Notes: a model not told the origin generated them from the letters alone. A DNA stretch of 64,000 bases from a bacterium (GCA_021108295.1 JAIORF010000102.1:110027-174026); one strand, 5' to 3'; counted from the first letter of the stretch, positions 1-44,330 are shown. A program made the numbers and translations.

Positions 1-200
1 TTGCGTTAGAGGAGTTTGGTATTCCTATGTATGATTTTACTCCTTTGCAGGTTAAGGATGCAGTTACAGGGTATGGGAGGGCGGATAAGAGGCAGGTGCA
101 GGAGAATGTAAAGAGGTTTTGTAAGTTAGAGAGTATTCCTAAGCCTGATGATGTTGCAGATGCAATGGCAGTGGCTATAGCTACTAGTAGGTTGGTATAG
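1..200 (+). CDS. ruvC: Holliday junction resolvase RuvC, C-terminal fragment (gene begins upstream of window)
   Basis: Frame-3 translation [65 protein letters not shown]-stop matches the conserved RuvC C-terminus; ruvA-ruvB lie downstream. Confidence 0.8.
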
Positions 201-254
201 AAAAGTATTATAAGGTTTGGTATACTGGAGGAATAAGTTTAATAAATACACATT

Positions 255-770
255 ATGGCACCACATTATAGTGAATTTGATCAAAGCTCCCCAAAAGATC
301 TTCTTTTGCAACGTCATGGGAAAGCAGTAGAATCTCTTGGAGAAATATGTGCAATGGAGAGTCTTGTTTCTGAGCAAATTGCCGAAGCTTTGGAAGAAAA
401 CGATTTATTATCCCTTGATTTTGTATCTTCTGGTAGTCGAGTTTATCCAGTTTCATTAGCAGTAATGTTACTAGATGGCAGTGAGAAGGAGTTAGTTAAT
501 AACAATCCCTCTGTTGATGAATTGGAACTTCTGGAAAAGATAATGCAACTTCCATCCACAAAGTCGATGTATAAAGGCTTTCTGGGACGAATACATGAAA
601 ATGAACGAAGTGTTCTTTTCGAGTCTAAGGATTGTAGGTGGAAAGGAGATGCTTTTAGAATAGTTCCAATTATTGGGGAATCTATACCTCGAGAGCGAGC
701 TGAGGAAATCCTTAGTGTGATTTCAAGTTCAGAGGGAGAGATTATTAATTGGAGAGTTGGAGGGGAATAG
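255..770 (+). CDS. Hypothetical protein, paralog A of a tandem pair (MAPHYSEF N-terminus)
   Basis: 171-aa ORF. It shares N-terminal MAPHYSEF, EICAM, SLDF and V(M/I)LP(V/I)IG(D/E) motifs with the next ORF; no recognisable domain. Confidence 0.5.
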   Translation: MAPHYSEFDQSSPKDLLLQRHGKAVESLGEICAMESLVSEQIAEALEENDLLSLDFVSSGSRVYPVSLAVMLLDGSEKELVNNNPSVDELELLEKIMQLPSTKSMYKGFLGRIHENERSVLFESKDCRWKGDAFRIVPIIGESIPRERAEEILSVISSSEGEIINWRVGGE

Positions 771-798
771 ATAGAAATAAGTTTGTTATAGAGATATT

Positions 799-1281
799 AT
801 GGCACCACATTATAGTGAATTTAGAGAAAAGCTTACAGGTGAACAATGTTTAGAGAAGTCTCTTAACGAGATATGTGCTATGGATTATCTCACTTCCGAA
901 GACTTACAATCCAGAAACTTTATATCTCTTGATTTCCTTAGGGATAATGATGGAGAAATTCGTCCAGTTGCTTTGGCTTTGGGACCTAGATTTGAGGGAG
1001 ATCTTCCCGATGTTAATGAGATGAAGCAGACTCCTTTCTTCAATCTCTATGTAAGCAGTGTTTATTGTGTTTTTTTAAATAGAGTGAAGAATAAGGACGC
1101 GAAGATTTTTGAGAAGATTAGTAAATATCCATATATATATTGGTATCCTGCTGGGCAGGATGTTGTGATGTTACCTGTTATTGGTGATCCCGTAAGCGAA
1201 GAACAAGTTGAAAAAATGTTTGAATTAGCTCCAGATACAGATACTCAAATATATGATTATGATTTCAGTGGAGTGTTTTAG
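799..1281 (+). CDS. Hypothetical protein, paralog B of the tandem pair
   Basis: 160-aa ORF. First 27 nt around the start codon are identical to paralog A (252-278 vs 796-822); otherwise diverged. Confidence 0.5.
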   Translation: MAPHYSEFREKLTGEQCLEKSLNEICAMDYLTSEDLQSRNFISLDFLRDNDGEIRPVALALGPRFEGDLPDVNEMKQTPFFNLYVSSVYCVFLNRVKNKDAKIFEKISKYPYIYWYPAGQDVVMLPVIGDPVSEEQVEKMFELAPDTDTQIYDYDFSGVF

Positions 1282-1326
1282 CTCTTAGAAATCTTTTACC
1301 ATATATGATATATTATAGGTATACAT

Positions 1327-1911
1327 ATGATCTCATACATACAGGGTAAAGTACTCAAAACATACATAGGTAAGCAATCCTATATCGATATCCTCATATC
1401 CAGTGGGGTAGGGTATAGGGTTTTTGTTCCTACTAACACTAAAGTTTTGCCAGTTAAGAGCGATATTAAAATATATACAAGTTTCCAGGTTAGACAAGAC
1501 AATCAGACCCTCTATGGCTTTGAGAAAGAGAGCGATAGGGACTTCTTTGAACAGTTGATAGGGGTATCTGGTATAGGTCCTAGAATAGGATTAGCCATAC
1601 TCTCTACATACCCTCAGGAAGAGTTGGAGGGTATCATCTTAGAAGGTGATTCTCGTAAGTTAAGTAAAGTGTCTGGTCTTGGTCTTAAAGGCTCTCAAAA
1701 GATTATATTAGAACTTAGGGGTAAGATAGATTTCAAGGATGAGGATAAGCAGAGTATAGAGAGTAAGCGTATTAGGGAGTTTAAGGATGCTATGAGAGCC
1801 TTAGGTTTTAGTGGAGAGTCTCTTAAGTTATACGTTAAGAAAGCAGAGAAGATTCTTGATAATGAGATGTTGGAGATAGAGGAGTTGCTTAAAAAAGTTT
1901 TGTCACAGTAG
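1327..1911 (+). CDS. ruvA: Holliday junction DNA helicase subunit RuvA
   Basis: 194 aa. N-terminal OB-fold region IQGKV, HhH repeats (GVSGIGPRIGLAIL; VSGLGLKGSQKII), C-terminal RuvB-binding domain; immediately precedes ruvB. Confidence 0.9.
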   Translation: MISYIQGKVLKTYIGKQSYIDILISSGVGYRVFVPTNTKVLPVKSDIKIYTSFQVRQDNQTLYGFEKESDRDFFEQLIGVSGIGPRIGLAILSTYPQEELEGIILEGDSRKLSKVSGLGLKGSQKIILELRGKIDFKDEDKQSIESKRIREFKDAMRALGFSGESLKLYVKKAEKILDNEMLEIEELLKKVLSQ

Positions 1912-1913
1912 TA

Positions 1914-2942
1914 ATGATTAAATCTAGTAAAAAAACTGAAGAGAAGAATAGGGGGAAGAATAGTAAGGTGGTTGCTAGTGCTGGATTGACAGATTCAGAA
2001 CAAAAGATTAGGCCATCTAGGTTTGATGATATTGTAGGTAGGGGACAGGAGAAAGAGACTATTAAGATGATGGTTGGTTCTGCTAAGAAGAGGAGGGAAG
2101 TAGTAGATCATATATTGTTCTATGGTCCTCCAGGATTGGGTAAGACTACGTTTGCAATGGCTATTGCCAATGAGATAGGTTCTTCTATTAGAATTACCTC
2201 TGGTCCTGCTATAGAGCGTCAGGGAGACTTGGCTGCTATACTCACTGGTCTTAAACCTAATGATGTTCTTTTCATTGATGAGATACATAGATTGTCTCCT
2301 ACTGTAGAGGAGATATTGTATCCTGCTATGGAAGATAGAGCATTGGATATCATTATGGGTAAAGGTCCATCTGCTAAAACCATTAGGTTAAACTTAGAGC
2401 CTTTTACATTGATTGGTGCTACTACTCAAATTGGTAAGATTAGTCCTCCTATGAGGGATAGGTTTGGTTTAGTACAAAGGTTAGATTTCTTTGAGCATGA
2501 GGATATGAATAGGATTATCAAAAGAGCTTGTAAGTTGTGGGGTATTCAGATAGAGGAGAGTGCTTTGGAGTTGCTTTCTATGTGTTCAAGAGGTACTGCT
2601 AGGATTGGTCTTAGGTTACTTCGAAGAGTACGGGATTATGCGCAGGACAAGGATAGGGATGTTGTTACATTAGAGATAGTACAGAGGACTTTTGAGTTAC
2701 TCGGTATTGATGAGATGGGGTTAGAGGGTATTGATAGGCAGATATTGGAATTAATACTAAACAGTTTTGGTGGTGGTCCTGTAGGTTTGTCTACATTGGC
2801 TGCCTCTTTGTCTGAAGATGAGGGTACTTTGGCAGAGGTTCACGAGCCGTATCTTATGAAGTGTGGCTTTATTAAACGTACTAATCGTGGTAGGGTATTA
2901 ACGGAGAAGGGAATTAGGTATATTAGTCAGCTATATGGATAA
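1914..2942 (+). CDS. ruvB: Holliday junction DNA helicase RuvB (AAA+)
   Basis: Walker A GPPGLGKTT, Walker B LFIDEIHRL, sensor and winged-helix C-terminus; conserved RFDDIVGQ-like N-terminus. Confidence 0.95.
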   Translation: MIKSSKKTEEKNRGKNSKVVASAGLTDSEQKIRPSRFDDIVGRGQEKETIKMMVGSAKKRREVVDHILFYGPPGLGKTTFAMAIANEIGSSIRITSGPAIERQGDLAAILTGLKPNDVLFIDEIHRLSPTVEEILYPAMEDRALDIIMGKGPSAKTIRLNLEPFTLIGATTQIGKISPPMRDRFGLVQRLDFFEHEDMNRIIKRACKLWGIQIEESALELLSMCSRGTARIGLRLLRRVRDYAQDKDRDVVTLEIVQRTFELLGIDEMGLEGIDRQILELILNSFGGGPVGLSTLAASLSEDEGTLAEVHEPYLMKCGFIKRTNRGRVLTEKGIRYISQLYG

Positions 2943-3753
2943 TATTGTTACTCAGAACACAGGAGAGGATAGTGTAAAGAGGTTAAAAATTATACTTCTT
3001 TCTTTTGTTTTGTCATTTTCCCTATTTTTTACTAAGATATTTGCTCAGGAATCTTCGTTACTCATGATCTATGTAGTAGGGGGTATATATTTCTTTGTCT
3101 CTGTGATTGGCTTATTGTGGGCTTTTAATTATAAGGTGAAGATTAGATCTTTAATTTATATCTTGCAGGGAGGTTTGTTTGTGTTTAGTGAGGTTCTTTT
3201 TGTGTTGGTGTTTTTCTTCCAGCAGTTTGATCGTATATATGAAGGTGTTTTGCTTTTCATTCTACTCTGTTTTATTTGGGTGATTACCTATGTTTGTTTC
3301 TTGATGGTAAATGTTTTTAATGTTGCTTTGTATAAGAGTTTGCCTTTGTTGCAGGTTGCTCAGACTGCTTCGTACATCCTTTCTTTGTTGATGATTTATT
3401 TCTTTACATTTTCTATTCTTACTAGTGGTTTCCCTTTGTATGTGATGTTTCCATTATTATTCATATTATATTTGTTTATATTGTTTATGCAGTTTAACGA
3501 ATTGGATATGGAGAAGGGTATTATATGGCGTAGGGTGATTTTGCTTTCGTTGATTAATATGTTTACAATTATCCCGTTTATATTTATAGGTTCAACTCAT
3601 GAGATTGTCGCTATAGTACCGACAGTAGGGGGTTTTGTTGGTGGTGGGCTGCTAAATCTTAGTGGGCAAAAGGATGTTAAGTGGCAGGTGTTTGGTTACA
3701 ATGTGATATTGCTAATTGCCATTGTTCTTGCAGTTTATTTTTGTTGGTTCTAA
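2935..3753 (+). CDS. Hypothetical polytopic membrane protein
   Basis: 272 aa with about 8 hydrophobic helices rich in F/L/I; overlaps ruvB stop by 8 nt. Confidence 0.5.
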   Translation: MDNIVTQNTGEDSVKRLKIILLSFVLSFSLFFTKIFAQESSLLMIYVVGGIYFFVSVIGLLWAFNYKVKIRSLIYILQGGLFVFSEVLFVLVFFFQQFDRIYEGVLLFILLCFIWVITYVCFLMVNVFNVALYKSLPLLQVAQTASYILSLLMIYFFTFSILTSGFPLYVMFPLLFILYLFILFMQFNELDMEKGIIWRRVILLSLINMFTIIPFIFIGSTHEIVAIVPTVGGFVGGGLLNLSGQKDVKWQVFGYNVILLIAIVLAVYFCWF

Positions 3754-4750: not shown

Positions 4751-6415
4751 TTAATTTAAACTTAAGGTATCAAAAACTGTCCGAGCAGCAACTTCTGGTG
4801 ATACTCCATTAGATACAACATTCCACAGGTTTTGAGTAAATACATTACCTGCTTGTTGACCTTGTAGCATAGCTTGGTCAACACCGAGGTTTTGTAGAGC
4901 TTCTACAAAGGTTTTCTGTAAAGCTCCATGACTTCCTCCAATATTTCCCATTGCAAGATCTTTGCCTTGCCATCCAAGGCTACTTGGTTCCCATCCATAG
5001 TCAGAGGCTTTTAACCATTGTCCTTCAAAGAGATTTGTAGGGGTAGTAGGTGATTCTATAATTGGTGGTTGTGAGACTTCAGTTAGAGGTGTTTCAGGAG
5101 TTAAATTTGGTCTTTCTGGTGGTGTTGGATCTATATTAGATGTAGTTTCGAGCATATTAAAAATGTTTTTTATGGCAGAGCCGATACCGTATCCAGTTGC
5201 TCCACCAATTAATACTGCAGAGGTCTCCCCTAGTCTATCGGACCACCATTTTCTTCTTTCAATTTGTTTGTTGAGTTGTTCTAGCTGTTCTGTGGTCATA
5301 TTTCTTCTGTCTGTGAGGTTTATATCCTTTGTTTTGGTTCTAATTCTTTCTTCCATGTGTTTTAGGTTTTTCCCTGCAAAGCGTCCACCGATTGTAATTC
5401 CTATGACTGCAGCTATTGATAGGGGTGGTGTGGCAATGGCGACTCCACCTGCAGTGACTCCTGCAACTATTTTGATAATCTTTTCTTTTCGTGTTCTCTT
5501 TTGTTGAGATTCTTGTTCTTTTTGATTGAGTGTTGTTTGGAGATTTTCTCTTTCTAGGAGGAGGTTTAAGTAATGGAGTTTCTCACTGTCAGGTATGGTT
5601 CTTTCATCGTTATATTCACGGAGGGCTGTTTTAGCTTCTAGTGCTTCAATAGATTGGTTTAGTTCAACTAATCTCTGAGTGTCTGTTGGTATTGGTTTTT
5701 CTTCAGGTTGAGTTGTAGGAGTTACTATCTTTTGAGGTTCTGGTGTGGTTGGTGTAGGAGTTACATTGTTTTCGTCTTTAAGAGTTTTGAGTTCTTCCCG
5801 AATCTTTCCTCTTCTATTCTCAATTGCTCTTAACTCAGCTTTTAATTCTATTTCTTTTGGTGTTTCTGTTTGCACAGGAGGTTTTGCTTTTGCTTCTGTG
5901 TCATTGTCTGTGATGCTTTTAAAGCGATCAATTGGTGGTCTCGTATTTGCAGGTACCCAAGCACTTTGGCTTTCTGGTGTTGGGCCTGGCCCCATTATCT
6001 TTGGAGGGTTTCCATCACTTGATGGAATGGTTGGTGTAGGAGGAGCTGTTGGAGTTGTGTTGTCACGAGCTGCAATCCTTTCCAGAGCTATTGCTTTGCG
6101 AGCTTGAAGTTCTTCTGATAGAGCTTGTTTTTGTTTTGGTGTTAGTAATTGCTTATCTGTAGTTTCTGTGATTGGAATATCTGTTGGTTGAGTAGTAGTT
6201 GTAGGAATGACTTCTCGAAATGGTTTGACTTCATCTTCTGGCTTTGGTTGTGGAGTATGTGGAGTATGGTCTCCCCAGCCTTTTTTAATATGTTGAGGTA
6301 TAGCACTGTAGTCTCCTGTTATATTTCCTTCAGCAGGTGGGTTATCAGTAACAGATGGAGGGGTACTTAAGGGGGCTTCCTGTGGCATACCGCTTTGTAA
6401 ATTATCAGTGTTCAT
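4751..6415 (-). CDS. Pro/Thr-rich membrane protein with coiled-coil segments and Gly-zipper-like transmembrane helices
   Basis: 554 aa. Long PT-rich low-complexity N-terminal region with coiled-coil heptads, two Gly-rich hydrophobic segments (IVAGVTAGGVAIATPPLSIAAVIGITIGG; SAVLIGGATGYGIGSAI) and a ~150-aa C-terminal domain. Confidence 0.5.
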   Translation of the reverse strand: MNTDNLQSGMPQEAPLSTPPSVTDNPPAEGNITGDYSAIPQHIKKGWGDHTPHTPQPKPEDEVKPFREVIPTTTTQPTDIPITETTDKQLLTPKQKQALSEELQARKAIALERIAARDNTTPTAPPTPTIPSSDGNPPKIMGPGPTPESQSAWVPANTRPPIDRFKSITDNDTEAKAKPPVQTETPKEIELKAELRAIENRRGKIREELKTLKDENNVTPTPTTPEPQKIVTPTTQPEEKPIPTDTQRLVELNQSIEALEAKTALREYNDERTIPDSEKLHYLNLLLERENLQTTLNQKEQESQQKRTRKEKIIKIVAGVTAGGVAIATPPLSIAAVIGITIGGRFAGKNLKHMEERIRTKTKDINLTDRRNMTTEQLEQLNKQIERRKWWSDRLGETSAVLIGGATGYGIGSAIKNIFNMLETTSNIDPTPPERPNLTPETPLTEVSQPPIIESPTTPTNLFEGQWLKASDYGWEPSSLGWQGKDLAMGNIGGSHGALQKTFVEALQNLGVDQAMLQGQQAGNVFTQNLWNVVSNGVSPEVAARTVFDTLSLN

Positions 6416-14759: not shown

Positions 14760-14963
14760 ATGAATTTAAACAAGAGAGATATGAGAACAATAGAAGATCA
14801 GATAGAAGAATTGTCAAGTAAGATGATTAAGATGGAATTTAAGGTAACTCAAATTGATGAAGAGAAGGAATTTGATTATCAAAAAGTATTAGCTACGATT
14901 AAATATCTTTATAAATATTATGATGATATGAATAAGGATCGGTCTATTAAGATTACATCATAG
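14760..14963 (+). CDS. Small hypothetical coiled-coil protein
   Basis: 67-aa charged ORF, convergent with gyrA and overlapping its stop by 11 nt; weak support. Confidence 0.3.
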
Positions 14964-17685
14964 CTACTGTAGCTACCTTGTCGTTTTTATCAACATTCAT
15001 AATTTTTACTCCACTAGTTTGTCTCCCCTGTGTAGGTACTGCTTTAAGGAAAGATCTTATCACTTTTGATTTCTCAGAGATAATCACTAATTCTGACTCT
15101 CTTGGATTATCCAATATTCTTGCAGCTACTACATCGCCAGTTTTAGGAGTAACCTTGAATGTGAATATACCACTACCTGCTCTCTTTTGACTACCGTATT
15201 CCTTAAGCTCTGTCATCTTAGCAAATCCTTTCTGTGAGATAGTGAGTAATCTAAACTCTTCGCTTTTGATTATGCCCATACCTACTATATGGTCAGTTTT
15301 AGATTTAAACTTCATAGCAGTTACACCTTTAGCTGTTCTACCCATGGCTCGGACGTCAGATTCTTTAAATCTGATAGATTTACCCTCTGAAGTGATTAAG
15401 ATTACATCATTGTCTCCTGTAGTAGGTTTTACCCATGTTAGTTTATCACCGTCTGCAAGTGTAAGTGCAATGAGACCGTTTGTTCTAATATTGCTAAATT
15501 CTGAGATCTTAGTTTTTTTGATAACGCCGTTCTTTGTTACCATTGTAAAGAATTTGTTCTTCTTCTTATCGTCCCCATCTTTACCTTCCCCTACTCCACC
15601 TTTAGGATCTCTTGTTACAAATGAAGTGATTAGATCGTTTTGGTCCAGTGAAATGAGATTTACCAAAGGTAATCCCTTGGCAGTCCTGCCATATTCTGGA
15701 ATTTCAAATACCCTAAGTGTGTATACCTTCCCTTTATTGCTAAAGAGCATTAACTCATCAAGTGTGTTACAAAGTATTGCATGTTTTACGAAATCGCCTT
15801 CCTTGTTGTTTCCTCCTCTGACTCCCTTCCCACCTCTCTTCTGAGATCTGTATGAATCGGGATCAACCCTTTTGATATATCCAGAGTTTGTGATTGTCAC
15901 GAGGGTGTCTTCAGAAGCTACCATGTCCTCTTCGTTGATTTCTCCTATCTTCCCTTTGACAACTTTGGATTTTCTTTCGTCACCGAATTTTTCTTTGATA
16001 AGTTGTAGGTCTGTATCTACGACTTCAAGTATTTTATCTTCACTTTCAAGTATTGCATTATATTCTTTAATTTTCTTCTCAAGATCTTTGTATTCATTTT
16101 GCAATTTAAGTTTCTCAAGTGCAGCTAATCGTCTAAGTTGCATATCAAGTATGGCTTGTGCCTGTACTTCTGTAAATTTGAACTTGTCGATAAGGTTAGT
16201 TTTTGCACTATCTTGTGTCTTGGATTGACGGATAGTGGCTATAATCTCGTCGAGTACATCTAGAGCTTTGAGTAAGCCTTCTAGAATATGTCCTCGATAT
16301 CTTGACTCTGCAAGATTATACTCATATCTTCTAATGGTTATCGTAATTCTGAAAGAGAGGAATAGTTCTAGCATTCTCTTTAAAGAGAGAGTCTTTGGTT
16401 CGTTCTTAACGAGTGCAATCATATTTGCATTGAACGCTTTCTGCATCTCGGTATATTTATACAGTTTGTTGAGTACAGCCTTCGGTTGTGCATCTCTTTT
16501 GAGTATGACGACAACTCGAATACCATCTTTATTGGATTCATCCCTTATATCAGCGATACCTTCGATCCTTTTATCCTTAACCAAGTCAGCGATTTTTTCA
16601 ATCATATGGGCTTTGTTAACTTGGTAAGGGATTTCTGTAATGATTATATGGAATCTATTCTTATCGCCTTCGATGATACTAGCTTTTGCTCTTTGTAAAA
16701 TTCTACCTCTTCCTGTAGCGTAAGCATTGAGTATCTCTTTTTGGTCGTATATTGTTCCACCGGTTGGGAAATCGGGTCCGGGAATTATCTCAATTAGTTC
16801 AGTAGGATTAATTTCTGATTTGAAATCTGGGTATACCACTTCATCTGTATCTTTCAACCTTTTTTCTATAGCTTGTATATCTTCACTAAAGTCTATCTGT
16901 TTTGTGTCTACATAGTTTTCAAAGTAGTGCTCTGGTTTTGAATTAAGCGTTTGTGGAGTAGTTTCTTCTGCCTCTTTGGATTTCCTCAGTTCATTGTAAA
17001 TAGCTTTACCTTTCCATCTGTTTTTTCTCTTTATCATTTCCTGCAATGCGTCGATGAGTTCTGTGAGATTGTGAGGAGGGATTTGTGTAGCCATACCTAC
17101 GGCAATACCTTGCGAACCGTTGGATAGCAGGTTTGGAAAGAGTGCTGGTAATACGGTTGGTTCAAGTCTTGTACCATCGTAGTTAACATTGTATGTGACA
17201 GTACCTTTATTTAAGTCTTTGAGAAGTTCGGGAGCTATTTTGGAGAGTTTTGCTTCTGTGTATCTCATTGCAGCTGGAGGATCGCCATCAATAGAGCCGA
17301 AGTTCCCTTGTCCATGTACTAGTGTGTATCTCATGGAGAATGGTTGTGCCAGTTTTACCATTGTTGGGTAAACTACTCCCTCACCGTGAGGATGGTAGTT
17401 CCCAGAGGTGTCTCCTGCGATCTTTGCAGATTTCCTAAAGTGGGCACTTGGCATTAAGCCTAGGTCGTTCATTGCTACTAAGATTCTTCTTTGTGAAGGT
17501 TTGAGGCCATCTCTGACTTCTGGGAGTGCACGAGAGACGATGACAGACATAGAGTAATCTATGAAGTTGGACTTCATTTCATCTACAATGCTTCTTGGAG
17601 CAATATCTCCTGGTTTGAATGTAGCATTGAAGTCTGTATCCCCATTATCTTCTACCGTCGTTGTGTTTTTTATTTCTTCTGGCAT
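14953..17685 (-). CDS. gyrA: DNA gyrase subunit A
   Basis: [17 protein letters not shown], active-site region [10 protein letters not shown], GyrA-box-like C-terminal repeats; ~50-aa extra segment between TELIDAL and GPDFPTGG. Confidence 0.95.
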
Positions 17686-43358: not shown

Positions 43359-44330
43359 ATGAATGTTTATGAGAGGATAATAAAAGAGAAGAGTTGTATT
43401 TATGCTTTAGCTCCTATGGAGGATATTACGGATTCTGTATTTAGGCAAATGTTGTGTGATATTGGTAAGCCGGATATGTTCTTTACCGAGTTTATGAGTA
43501 CAGATGGGTATATGTCTAAGGGTAGAGAGAATGTAATGCATAGATTGGAGTTTAGAGATATAGAGAGGCCTATTATAGTGCAATTGTGGGGTAATACTCC
43601 TGAGAATTATGCTAATACAGTGAAGAATATTGTGAATCTTAAGCCTGATGGTATTGATATTAATATTGGCTGTAGTGTTAAGAATGTTTTGAGGAGTGGT
43701 CATTGTTCTGCATTAATTAAAGAGCCAGAGTTAGTTAAGGACATTATTGAGGCTGTGAAGAGTAAGGCTGGTGATATTCCTGTTAGTGTTAAGACTAGGT
43801 TAGGTTACGATTCCATTATCACAGATTCTTGGTTTAATTTTTTACTTGAACAGAATCTTGATCTTATTACAGTGCATGGGAGGATATCGAAGGATGGTTA
43901 CAATATTCCTGCTAATTGGGATGAGATTGGTAAGGTGGTTAAGTTAAGAGATGTGGTTTCCCCTACTACCGTTATATTGGGGAATGGAGATATTTCTAGT
44001 TTAGATATGGCAGATGAGTATGTTTCTAAGTATGGTGTAGATGGCGTAATGGTTGGAAGGGGTATAGTCAACAATCCGTGGTTATTTAGTAGGAGGGGGG
44101 ATATAGACGAGAAGGAGCGTTTAGAGGTGTTAAAGAAGCACTTAGAGCTTTTTAAGGGTACTTGGGAGGGGGTTAAGAGTTATAATAGTCAGAAGAAGTA
44201 TGTAAAGATGTATATTAGTGGTTTTGAAGGGGTTAGTGAGTTAAGACAGAGGTTGATGGAGTGTGAGGAGGTGGATAGGGCTTTGGAGATTGTAGAGGGA
44301 TATATAGAAGAATCTGCTATTTCTCCTTGA
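43359..44330 (+). CDS. dus: tRNA-dihydrouridine synthase
   Basis: LAPMEDITDSVFRQM, FMN-binding TIM barrel motifs, catalytic Cys in NIGCS. Confidence 0.85.
   Translation: MNVYERIIKEKSCIYALAPMEDITDSVFRQMLCDIGKPDMFFTEFMSTDGYMSKGRENVMHRLEFRDIERPIIVQLWGNTPENYANTVKNIVNLKPDGIDINIGCSVKNVLRSGHCSALIKEPELVKDIIEAVKSKAGDIPVSVKTRLGYDSIITDSWFNFLLEQNLDLITVHGRISKDGYNIPANWDEIGKVVKLRDVVSPTTVILGNGDISSLDMADEYVSKYGVDGVMVGRGIVNNPWLFSRRGDIDEKERLEVLKKHLELFKGTWEGVKSYNSQKKYVKMYISGFEGVSELRQRLMECEEVDRALEIVEGYIEESAISP

Follow-up and report, generated by a model that had tools for sequence, protein, structure and literature searches.

The gap between ruvC and ruvA in a Candidatus Dojkabacteria (CPR/Patescibacteria) MAG raises the question of why two neighbouring genes, divergent over most of their length, begin with the same 27 nucleotides. 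CPR/Patescibacteria genomes are small and contain many unannotated genes, and little is known about their strain-variable parts and the causes of that variation. The window analysed here, a stretch of 64,000 nucleotides whose host was identified through relatives of its RuvA, carries genes A and B in this gap (Table 1). As described in an earlier note on this DNA, both ORFs start with MAPHYSEF, and BLASTP bears them out as divergent tandem paralogs (29% identity, E 4e-16). We propose that A and B belong, as two of its units, to a variable and lineage-specific gene array that occupies the ruvC-ruvA gap in one Dojkabacteria clade.

Table 1 The ruvC-ruvA slot in the window and its content in related genomes. 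Positions are counted from the first nucleotide of the window, or of the contig for ORF W; primes mark A-type genes of other genomes.
Feature	Position	Strand	Description
ruvC 3' end	1..200	+	Stop TAG at 198-200; last bases GGTATAG are the start of the long box
Long junction box	198..254	+	TAGAAA 198-203, 17 nt, TG-n-TATACT 218-226, GGAGG, AATAAGTTT 232-240, spacer 241-251, ATT
Crossover zone	241..263	+	Aligns to the start regions of both X and A' in L001
Identical tract, copy 1	252..278	+	ATT and the first 8 codons of gene A
Gene A	255..770	+	171 aa, acidic (pI 4.65), without signal peptide, orphan alpha/beta protein
Short A-B junction	768..798	+	Stop TAG, ATAGAAATAAGTTT, 11-nt spacer, ATT; without promoter-like part
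Identical tract, copy 2	796..822	+	ATT and the first 8 codons of gene B
Gene B	799..1281	+	160 aa, acidic (pI 4.39), paralog of A
Native ruvA upstream region	1286..1326	+	TAGAAA-17-TATATT with TG; ATATGATATATTATAGGTATACAT; downstream border of the insertion slot
ruvA	1327..1911	+	Pfam RuvA_N/HHH_5
ruvB	1914..2942	+	Pfam RuvB_N/RuvB_C
L001 slot (MAG GCA_021107795.1)			ruvC, long box, X (181 aa, GTG start), short junction, A', scar of B, ruvA
L018 slot			ruvC, long box, A'' (174 aa), short junction, Y (184 aa, X-like), second full long box, D
L019 slot			X-like gene, A''' (frameshifted), box, Z
L009 slot	48..521		ORF W, acidic, 157 aa, directly upstream of ruvA

The flanks of the gap are ordinary. 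The ruvC translation of the window has 89-89.8% amino acid identity to the RuvC (PF02075) of relative L001, and its 3' end is identical at every nucleotide (100%) to that of L006. In two other Dojkabacteria, ruvC stands directly before ruvA, with a spacer of approximately 45 nt in L010 (RuvA 75% identical) and 18 nt in L012 (RuvA 42% identical). The native region upstream of ruvA is conserved in the insert-free L010 as well as in L009 and L001, and its last approximately 28 nt, ATATGATATATTATAGGTA(TA)CAT, are shared by the window and the relatives compared. Because L010 and L012 join ruvC to ruvA and the ruvA upstream region is conserved, A and B occupy an insertion slot, and the ruvC-ruvA spacing of relatives thus agrees with the insertion into ruvC-ruvA-ruvB that had been suggested from the window.

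The content of this slot changes between genomes (Table 1). Four independent arrays are available, two of them on short contigs of 1.3-1.8 kb. The A' gene of L001 is an ortholog of A (82% identical), and in the same genome B has been deleted, leaving a scar that keeps the upstream junction of B (GAATAGATAGAAATAAGTTT) and the last approximately 30 nt of its ORF. No ortholog of B outside the window's genome was found by protein homolog searches or in the slots of relatives. Gene D of L018 is truncated by the contig end. At 237-748 of L019, a JGI contig, a frameshift divides an A-type gene into an 88-aa part and a 93-aa ORF read in a different frame; the break is due to pseudogenisation of the unit or else to a sequencing error. 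L009 is a related Dojkabacteria genome (RuvA 78% identical) whose contig begins 47 nt before ORF W; W has no junction box and no detectable similarity to the A/B/X family, and neither W nor Z of L019 was accepted as a family member, since homology was not demonstrable (hhalign E 0.13-0.2). Contigs often break in or near the slot: L003 and L015 end at ruvA codon 45, L008 starts at ruvA codon 7, and L006 (96 nt into B), L009, L018 and L019 also end in or beside it. These contig ends, which come from MAG and Logan contigs, may reflect strain heterogeneity that breaks assemblies.

Selection on A differs from that on its neighbours. Compared with L001, dN/dS is 0.38 for A, against 0.04 for ruvA, 0.07 for ruvB and 0.14-0.15 for other flanking genes; purifying selection acts on A less strictly than on the adjacent genes, and the genes are real. 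Third-position GC content is also lower, at 0.25 and 0.28 in A and B (255-1278) versus 0.33-0.40 in the flanking genes (1327-3750). That A and B act as accessory factors of the Ruv resolvasome, or serve some other housekeeping function under co-regulation in the operon, would accord with their co-direction with yebC-ruvC-ruvA-ruvB and with the lack of a terminator-like site between B and ruvA. However, the genes are absent in the Dojkabacteria in which ruvC abuts ruvA (L010 and L012), slot content varies among close relatives with one copy frameshifted and one deleted, and the dN/dS of A is three to nine times that of the ruv genes, all of which leaves this reading highly improbable. A single, conserved housekeeping gene at this position, the case that the earlier note had set against its own proposal, is not what the relatives carry.

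The proteins encoded by the complete units are acidic (pI 4.4-4.7), hydrophilic (GRAVY -0.2 to -0.5) and devoid of signal peptides, and they belong to no family that we could match. Searches of A and B against Pfam, NCBIfam, PADLOC and PHROGs gave no match, nor did Pfam for all family members together with Y, Z and W, so that the BLAST and HMM checks proposed earlier yield paralogy and no known family. A profile built from A and B returned only A, B and A' from 5.8e9 proteins, while word-indexed searches of 5.8e9 proteins returned these three and X; the only further real relatives, P0005 and P0007, came from a full HMMER search of 1.84e9 representatives. Two further hits, P0006 and P0008, were rejected as cadherin-repeat false positives that sum weak matches to a PVVIGS repeat. 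A search of JGI metagenome contigs with the box pattern and the A-type profile yielded no further arrays. A phage or plasmid origin was also rejected, as scans of viral contigs (protein profile and box pattern) and tblastn against phage genomes found no relatives.

The X/Y-type and A/B-type genes are nevertheless connected at the profile level. Their profiles align colinearly (hhalign E 8e-4) and share a C-terminal motif (h-P-V/I-V/I-G/I-E/D ... E/Q ... h-F/L). In an AF2 model of A (pLDDT 74, pTM 0.70), the N-terminus with MAPHYSEF is disordered, and the order that follows is helix-helix-hairpin-helix-helix-hairpin-helix-strand; X, modelled at low confidence (pLDDT 57.5), repeats this order of secondary structure. 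No PDB or fold match was found for the A model. A LAGLIDADG homing endonuclease was considered for its alpha-beta-beta-alpha-beta-beta-alpha order and weak Foldseek rows and was rejected for want of the motif helix, a basic DNA-binding surface and a structural match; YbjN and type III chaperone-like folds, which appeared as weak rows only, were likewise rejected. We suggest that each unit encodes a cytosolic alpha/beta protein of 160-185 aa, acidic in character, and that all belong to one fast-diverging orphan superfamily.

Against this divergence, the identity at the start of A and B stands out. Both copies of the tract read ATTATGGCACCACATTATAGTGAATTT, a sequence with only these two matches in 64 kb when up to three mismatches are allowed and with none expected from 100 shuffles, confirming the repeat that had been reported. 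With a repeat finder the match grows to 50 nt (229-278 and 773-822), 86% of them identical. The extension includes the shared sequence that had been noticed ahead of both ORFs: AATAAGTTT occurs at 232-240 and again at 776-784, each time 11 nt ahead of ATTATG. Beyond the first eight codons, the codon-aligned nucleotide identity of A and B falls to 0.48 and the third-position identity to 0.39, and the same codon is used at 17 of the 42 identical residues (40%). Given the same amino acids, the probability that all seven non-Met codons match is approximately 0.002-0.003, the codon usage of the window giving 0.003. Because such a codon match is improbable (p 0.003) and elsewhere a codon is shared at just 40% of identical residues, the 27-nt identity exceeds what the proteins conserve, and amino acid conservation alone does not explain it.

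Part of the answer lies in a junction box, with the identical tract as its core, at which each unit would open, in a long or a short form. The long form can be written as TAGAAA-17-TGnTATACT, AATAAGTTT, approximately 11 variable nucleotides and ATT ATG GCA CCA. In the window, a promoter scan identified its TAGAAA and, after 17 nt, TATACT (221-226) with a preceding TG. Long boxes stand ahead of five units in four genomes (A of the window, X of L001, A'' and D of L018 and Z of L019); TAGAAA and TGnTATACT are constant in the five copies, the sole change within the latter being G to A at n. This composition fits an extended -10 promoter with a predicted transcript start near AATAAGTTT. The short junctions before B of the window, A' of L001, Y of L018 and A''' of L019 have no promoter-like part, so the modules look bicistronic, with a long box, a first gene, a short junction and a second gene. 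The ATATT-ATG-[G/T]C[A/T]-CCA start (M-A/S-P) is found in eight of ten unit starts across the four genomes, and within the 64-kb window only A and B have it. The 11-nt spacer between the two conserved blocks varies freely. The conserved 5' element envisaged in the earlier note is partly supported, by the shared start and by the long box ahead of five units; its form as a structured RNA is not.

That form would make the shared 5' segment a cis-regulatory RNA (a riboswitch, attenuator or thermosensor) or a small RNA gene. A weak hairpin, AUUAUGG/UUAUAGU, can be drawn around the start codon, and the TAT to CGT change in L001 preserves its pairing. Its arms, however, are not conserved in other units, Rfam gave no match at E up to 1, and structure prediction placed the folding of the A and B starts at the level of shuffled sequences (z of -0.27 and -0.38), with other units at +0.5 to +1.3. 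The only candidate stem of the long box (AGTAT/ATACT) changes without compensation. The structured-RNA reading is close to refuted.

Comparison of the window with L001 indicates that the box is also a place where units come and go. By blastn, window positions 6-263 correspond to L001 5186-5443 (the end of ruvC, the long box and the start of X), and positions 241-789 correspond to L001 5987-6535 (the start of A' onward). Both alignments cover 241-263, inside the box, which places there the junction for the presence or absence of X; the two genomes differ in X by a loss or a gain. Furthermore, the 45 nt that follow the ruvC stop (GAAAAGTATTATAAGGTTTGGTATACTGGAGGAATAAGTTT) are repeated within the arrays of L018 and L019. 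The long box occurs once in the window and, outside the arrays, nowhere in the window or the fetched loci. The repeated box carries the final bases of ruvC, GGTATAG, as expected from unequal crossing-over. Rearrangement is not confined to box-to-box events, because the loss of B in L001 used a microhomology junction: the start-codon region was joined to ATATGATTATG near the 3' end of B, and the 3' side offers microhomology (ATAT|ATG) and no second box.

Array content is also in conflict with the relatedness of the flanking ruvC gene. By ruvC, L018 is closer to the window strain (92.4% nucleotide and 95.5% amino acid identity) than L001 is (86.6% and 89.8%), whereas by unit L001 is the closer, A' being 82% identical to A and the first unit of L018 only 38%. 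The dS between A and its L001 ortholog is 0.25, against 0.55-0.72 for ruvA, ruvB and the adjacent 272-codon ORF (orf272), which hints at a more recent exchange of A, though the low GC3 of A may bias its dS and the difference is therefore not counted as evidence. Unit gain and loss at the box, duplicated boxes and the conflict with the flanks together back the gene conversion or cassette-like variation that had been raised as an explanation of the tract.

The alternative that weighs most on the 27 nucleotides themselves is that they are kept, without conversion, by purifying selection on the bases around the translation start. The constraint could be an unstructured mRNA 5' end that is leaderless or free of a Shine-Dalgarno sequence, or else a functional MAPHYSEF peptide. 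A Shine-Dalgarno-like motif precedes just five of the 51 window ORFs of at least 150 aa, and many window ORFs have a TGnTATAAT-like box that ends 6-13 nt before the ATG, for example ahead of the start codons at 43359, 59113, 31253, 14555(-), 63708(-) and 1327, which suggests that leaderless or very short-leader mRNAs are widespread in this Dojkabacteria genome. With so few Shine-Dalgarno motifs and TGnTATAAT so near the ATG, selection on a start of this kind is plausible for the first few codons. The recurrence of the M-A/S-P start agrees with it, as do the start regions, which fold no better or even worse than shuffles, and the A-type orthologs, which retain M-A-P-[HF]-x-[SD]-E-F. Past codon 3, however, the bases differ freely among X, Y, Z and D and are not conserved among the units of other genomes; the A-type gene of L019 has the synonymous GAG TTC for GAA TTT, and A' of L001 has CGT for TAT. 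Such variation means that constraint on all 27 bases is not general. The spacer is variable and the N-terminus is predicted to be disordered, and we judge selection alone an unlikely account.

A recent tract of gene conversion or unequal recombination, laid over a shorter selected start, fits the 27 nucleotides best. It is favoured because codon identity exceeds amino acid conservation and other units differ. The contrast between paralogs and orthologs can be seen in the tract itself: two of the 27 positions separate A from its ortholog A', and none separates A from B, although these paralogs are far more diverged. In the mechanism that we propose, the box would serve both as the expression start of a unit and as the homology for recombination; unequal homologous recombination between boxes would remove, add or swap units, short conversion tracts would homogenise unit starts, and the A/B identity would be one such tract atop a selected start region. 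The identity could also owe something to selection on the mRNA start, which counts against assigning it wholly to recombination. We are confident in the part of this explanation that concerns a variable array and its recombination; the whole, including a guess at protein function that is discussed below, we regard as probable.

A further alternative is a site-specific cassette system; the array would then resemble an integron or the Mycoplasma vsp, vpma and vsa systems, and the box would be an att or recombination site served by its own recombinase. In the Mycoplasma vsp, vpma, vlp and vsa families, genes share near-identical 5' untranslated regions and first codons and diverge over the rest, and the 5' part is the recombination substrate; they encode lipoproteins with signal peptides, occur in both orientations and undergo site-specific inversion by an adjacent recombinase. 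The array shares with them the conserved 5' region and first codons ahead of a divergent remainder. Unlike them, it has no signal peptide or lipobox cysteine (the proteins are soluble and begin with hydrophilic stretches, MAPHYSEF, MSPETGLG and MAPDIANI), all of its units are co-directional, and no recombinase lies nearby. Like integron cassettes, the units sit in a promoter-proximal insertion slot and are parted by repeats; unlike them, they come with neither IntI nor imperfect palindromes of the attC type, and their boxes, which have a promoter-like element of their own, stand on the 5' side.

The arrangement in L018, where a module lies between direct repeats of the approximately 45-nt long box, and the box between units of L019 are both compatible with a site-specific system. 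So are the repetitive intergenic sequences, which are a feature of the rAID-1 arrays of Bacteroidales described by Ross et al. (bioRxiv 10.1101/471110), where a tyrosine recombinase stands at the head. The rAID-1 arrays and the present one are alike in their small, diverse, co-directional genes, repetitive intergenic sequences and skewed composition. Nevertheless, no recombinase or integrase, including XerD-like or IntI tyrosine recombinases, lies within approximately 6 kb on either side of the array in L001, L006 or L020 or among the scanned ORFs of the window. The uniform orientation of the units also speaks against a site-specific system, as do the lack of a conserved inverted repeat in the box, where changes in the 5' arm are uncompensated, the inclusion of the last ruvC bases in the repeat, which unequal crossing-over predicts, and junctions that fall at no single fixed position. 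We consider such a system very unlikely.

The closest described system is found in the tandem esaG (DUF600) and tipC strings, type VII secretion immunity paralogs of Staphylococcus and Streptococcus whose genes are lost and multiplied by recombination through conserved nucleotide blocks, some of them at gene ends and between genes (Garrett et al. 2022, PMC9484751). As in those strings, the Dojkabacteria units are non-identical, co-directional small paralogs with variable bodies and similar nucleotide blocks at gene ends or between genes, and recombination through the blocks would lead to loss and expansion between close strains, with pseudogenised copies. The array differs in having no sequence or fold relation to DUF600 or TipC, and no adjacent polymorphic toxin (EsaD, TelC, LXG) or T7SS locus within approximately 6 kb. 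It is also tiny (2-3 or more units) and placed inside a DNA-repair operon of a CPR bacterium, its conserved block is mainly one 5' junction box with a promoter-like element, and its paralogs are far more diverged (29% identity, or related at the profile level only). The array thus resembles esaG/tipC and rAID-1 at the DNA level and departs from them in protein homology, adjacent toxins and recombinases.

The analogy with tandem strings of immunity genes is the reason for our guess at function, which is that the units are candidate neutralising or binding proteins in genetic or interbacterial conflict. We offer it tentatively, as a possibility with the odds against it. An immunity-like role is plausible from the architecture, small size and acidity of the units. 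No family of immunity proteins, defence proteins or toxins matches A or B. Genes for toxins, secretion systems or recombinases are absent within approximately 6 kb of the array, where the neighbours encode a pseudouridine synthase, a LytR_C protein, a DUF8128 ATPase, YebC, RuvC, RuvA, RuvB, a membrane protein and glycosyltransferases. No cognate toxin was recognised among the scanned ORFs of the window, which are housekeeping genes, among them gyrA/B, clpB, mutS and those for type IV pilus ATPases and enolase.

A more far-reaching reading, which we hold to be rather improbable, is an integrase-free cassette system in which orphan-fold units are swapped by homologous recombination after DNA uptake through portable boxes of approximately 55-70 nt and act as pairs of paralogs. 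The boxes may carry promoter, leader and first codons along with the unit. Distant paralogs may pair in this way, either A with B or an A-type with an X-type protein, and such heterodimers could, for instance, neutralise toxins or host factors.

Arrays of this architecture are already known; what is new here is the protein family, the phylum of the host and the place in the genome. We read the locus as a recombination-prone mini-array of a very narrowly distributed orphan family, with the 27-nt identity marking the recombining junction box. It is a compact, well-delimited hypervariable slot in a core operon, whose recombination substrate is readable from sequence, and it adds an orphan protein family with a confident-enough model and no known fold relative. 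The box sequence or the ruvC-ruvA gap could serve as a handle on conflict or host-interaction genes in Dojkabacteria. If the units are immunity factors, the rule that tandem immunity paralogs evolve by recombining through conserved blocks would extend to a new phylum; if they are integrase-free cassettes, ultra-small episymbiotic bacteria would possess a contingency locus of a new kind.

Several other features of the window were recorded in passing. A 272-aa multi-pass membrane ORF at 2935-3753 (+) overlaps the ruvB stop and is conserved in L001 (dN/dS 0.14). Pfam has no match for it, nor for a 554-aa Pro/Thr-rich ORF with a C-terminal hydrophobic region at 4751-6415 (-). The window and L020 (ERZ26872907) are 99.8% identical, the only differences being five changes to T at 2626-2675 in ruvB, where the window has four G and one A; this cluster looks like an assembly or sequencing artefact. 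Lastly, a gyrA-like ORF of 910 aa at 14953-17685 (-) matches Pfam DNA_topoisoIV in two stretches, the first covering residues 51-222, which suggests an insertion within its N-terminal domain.
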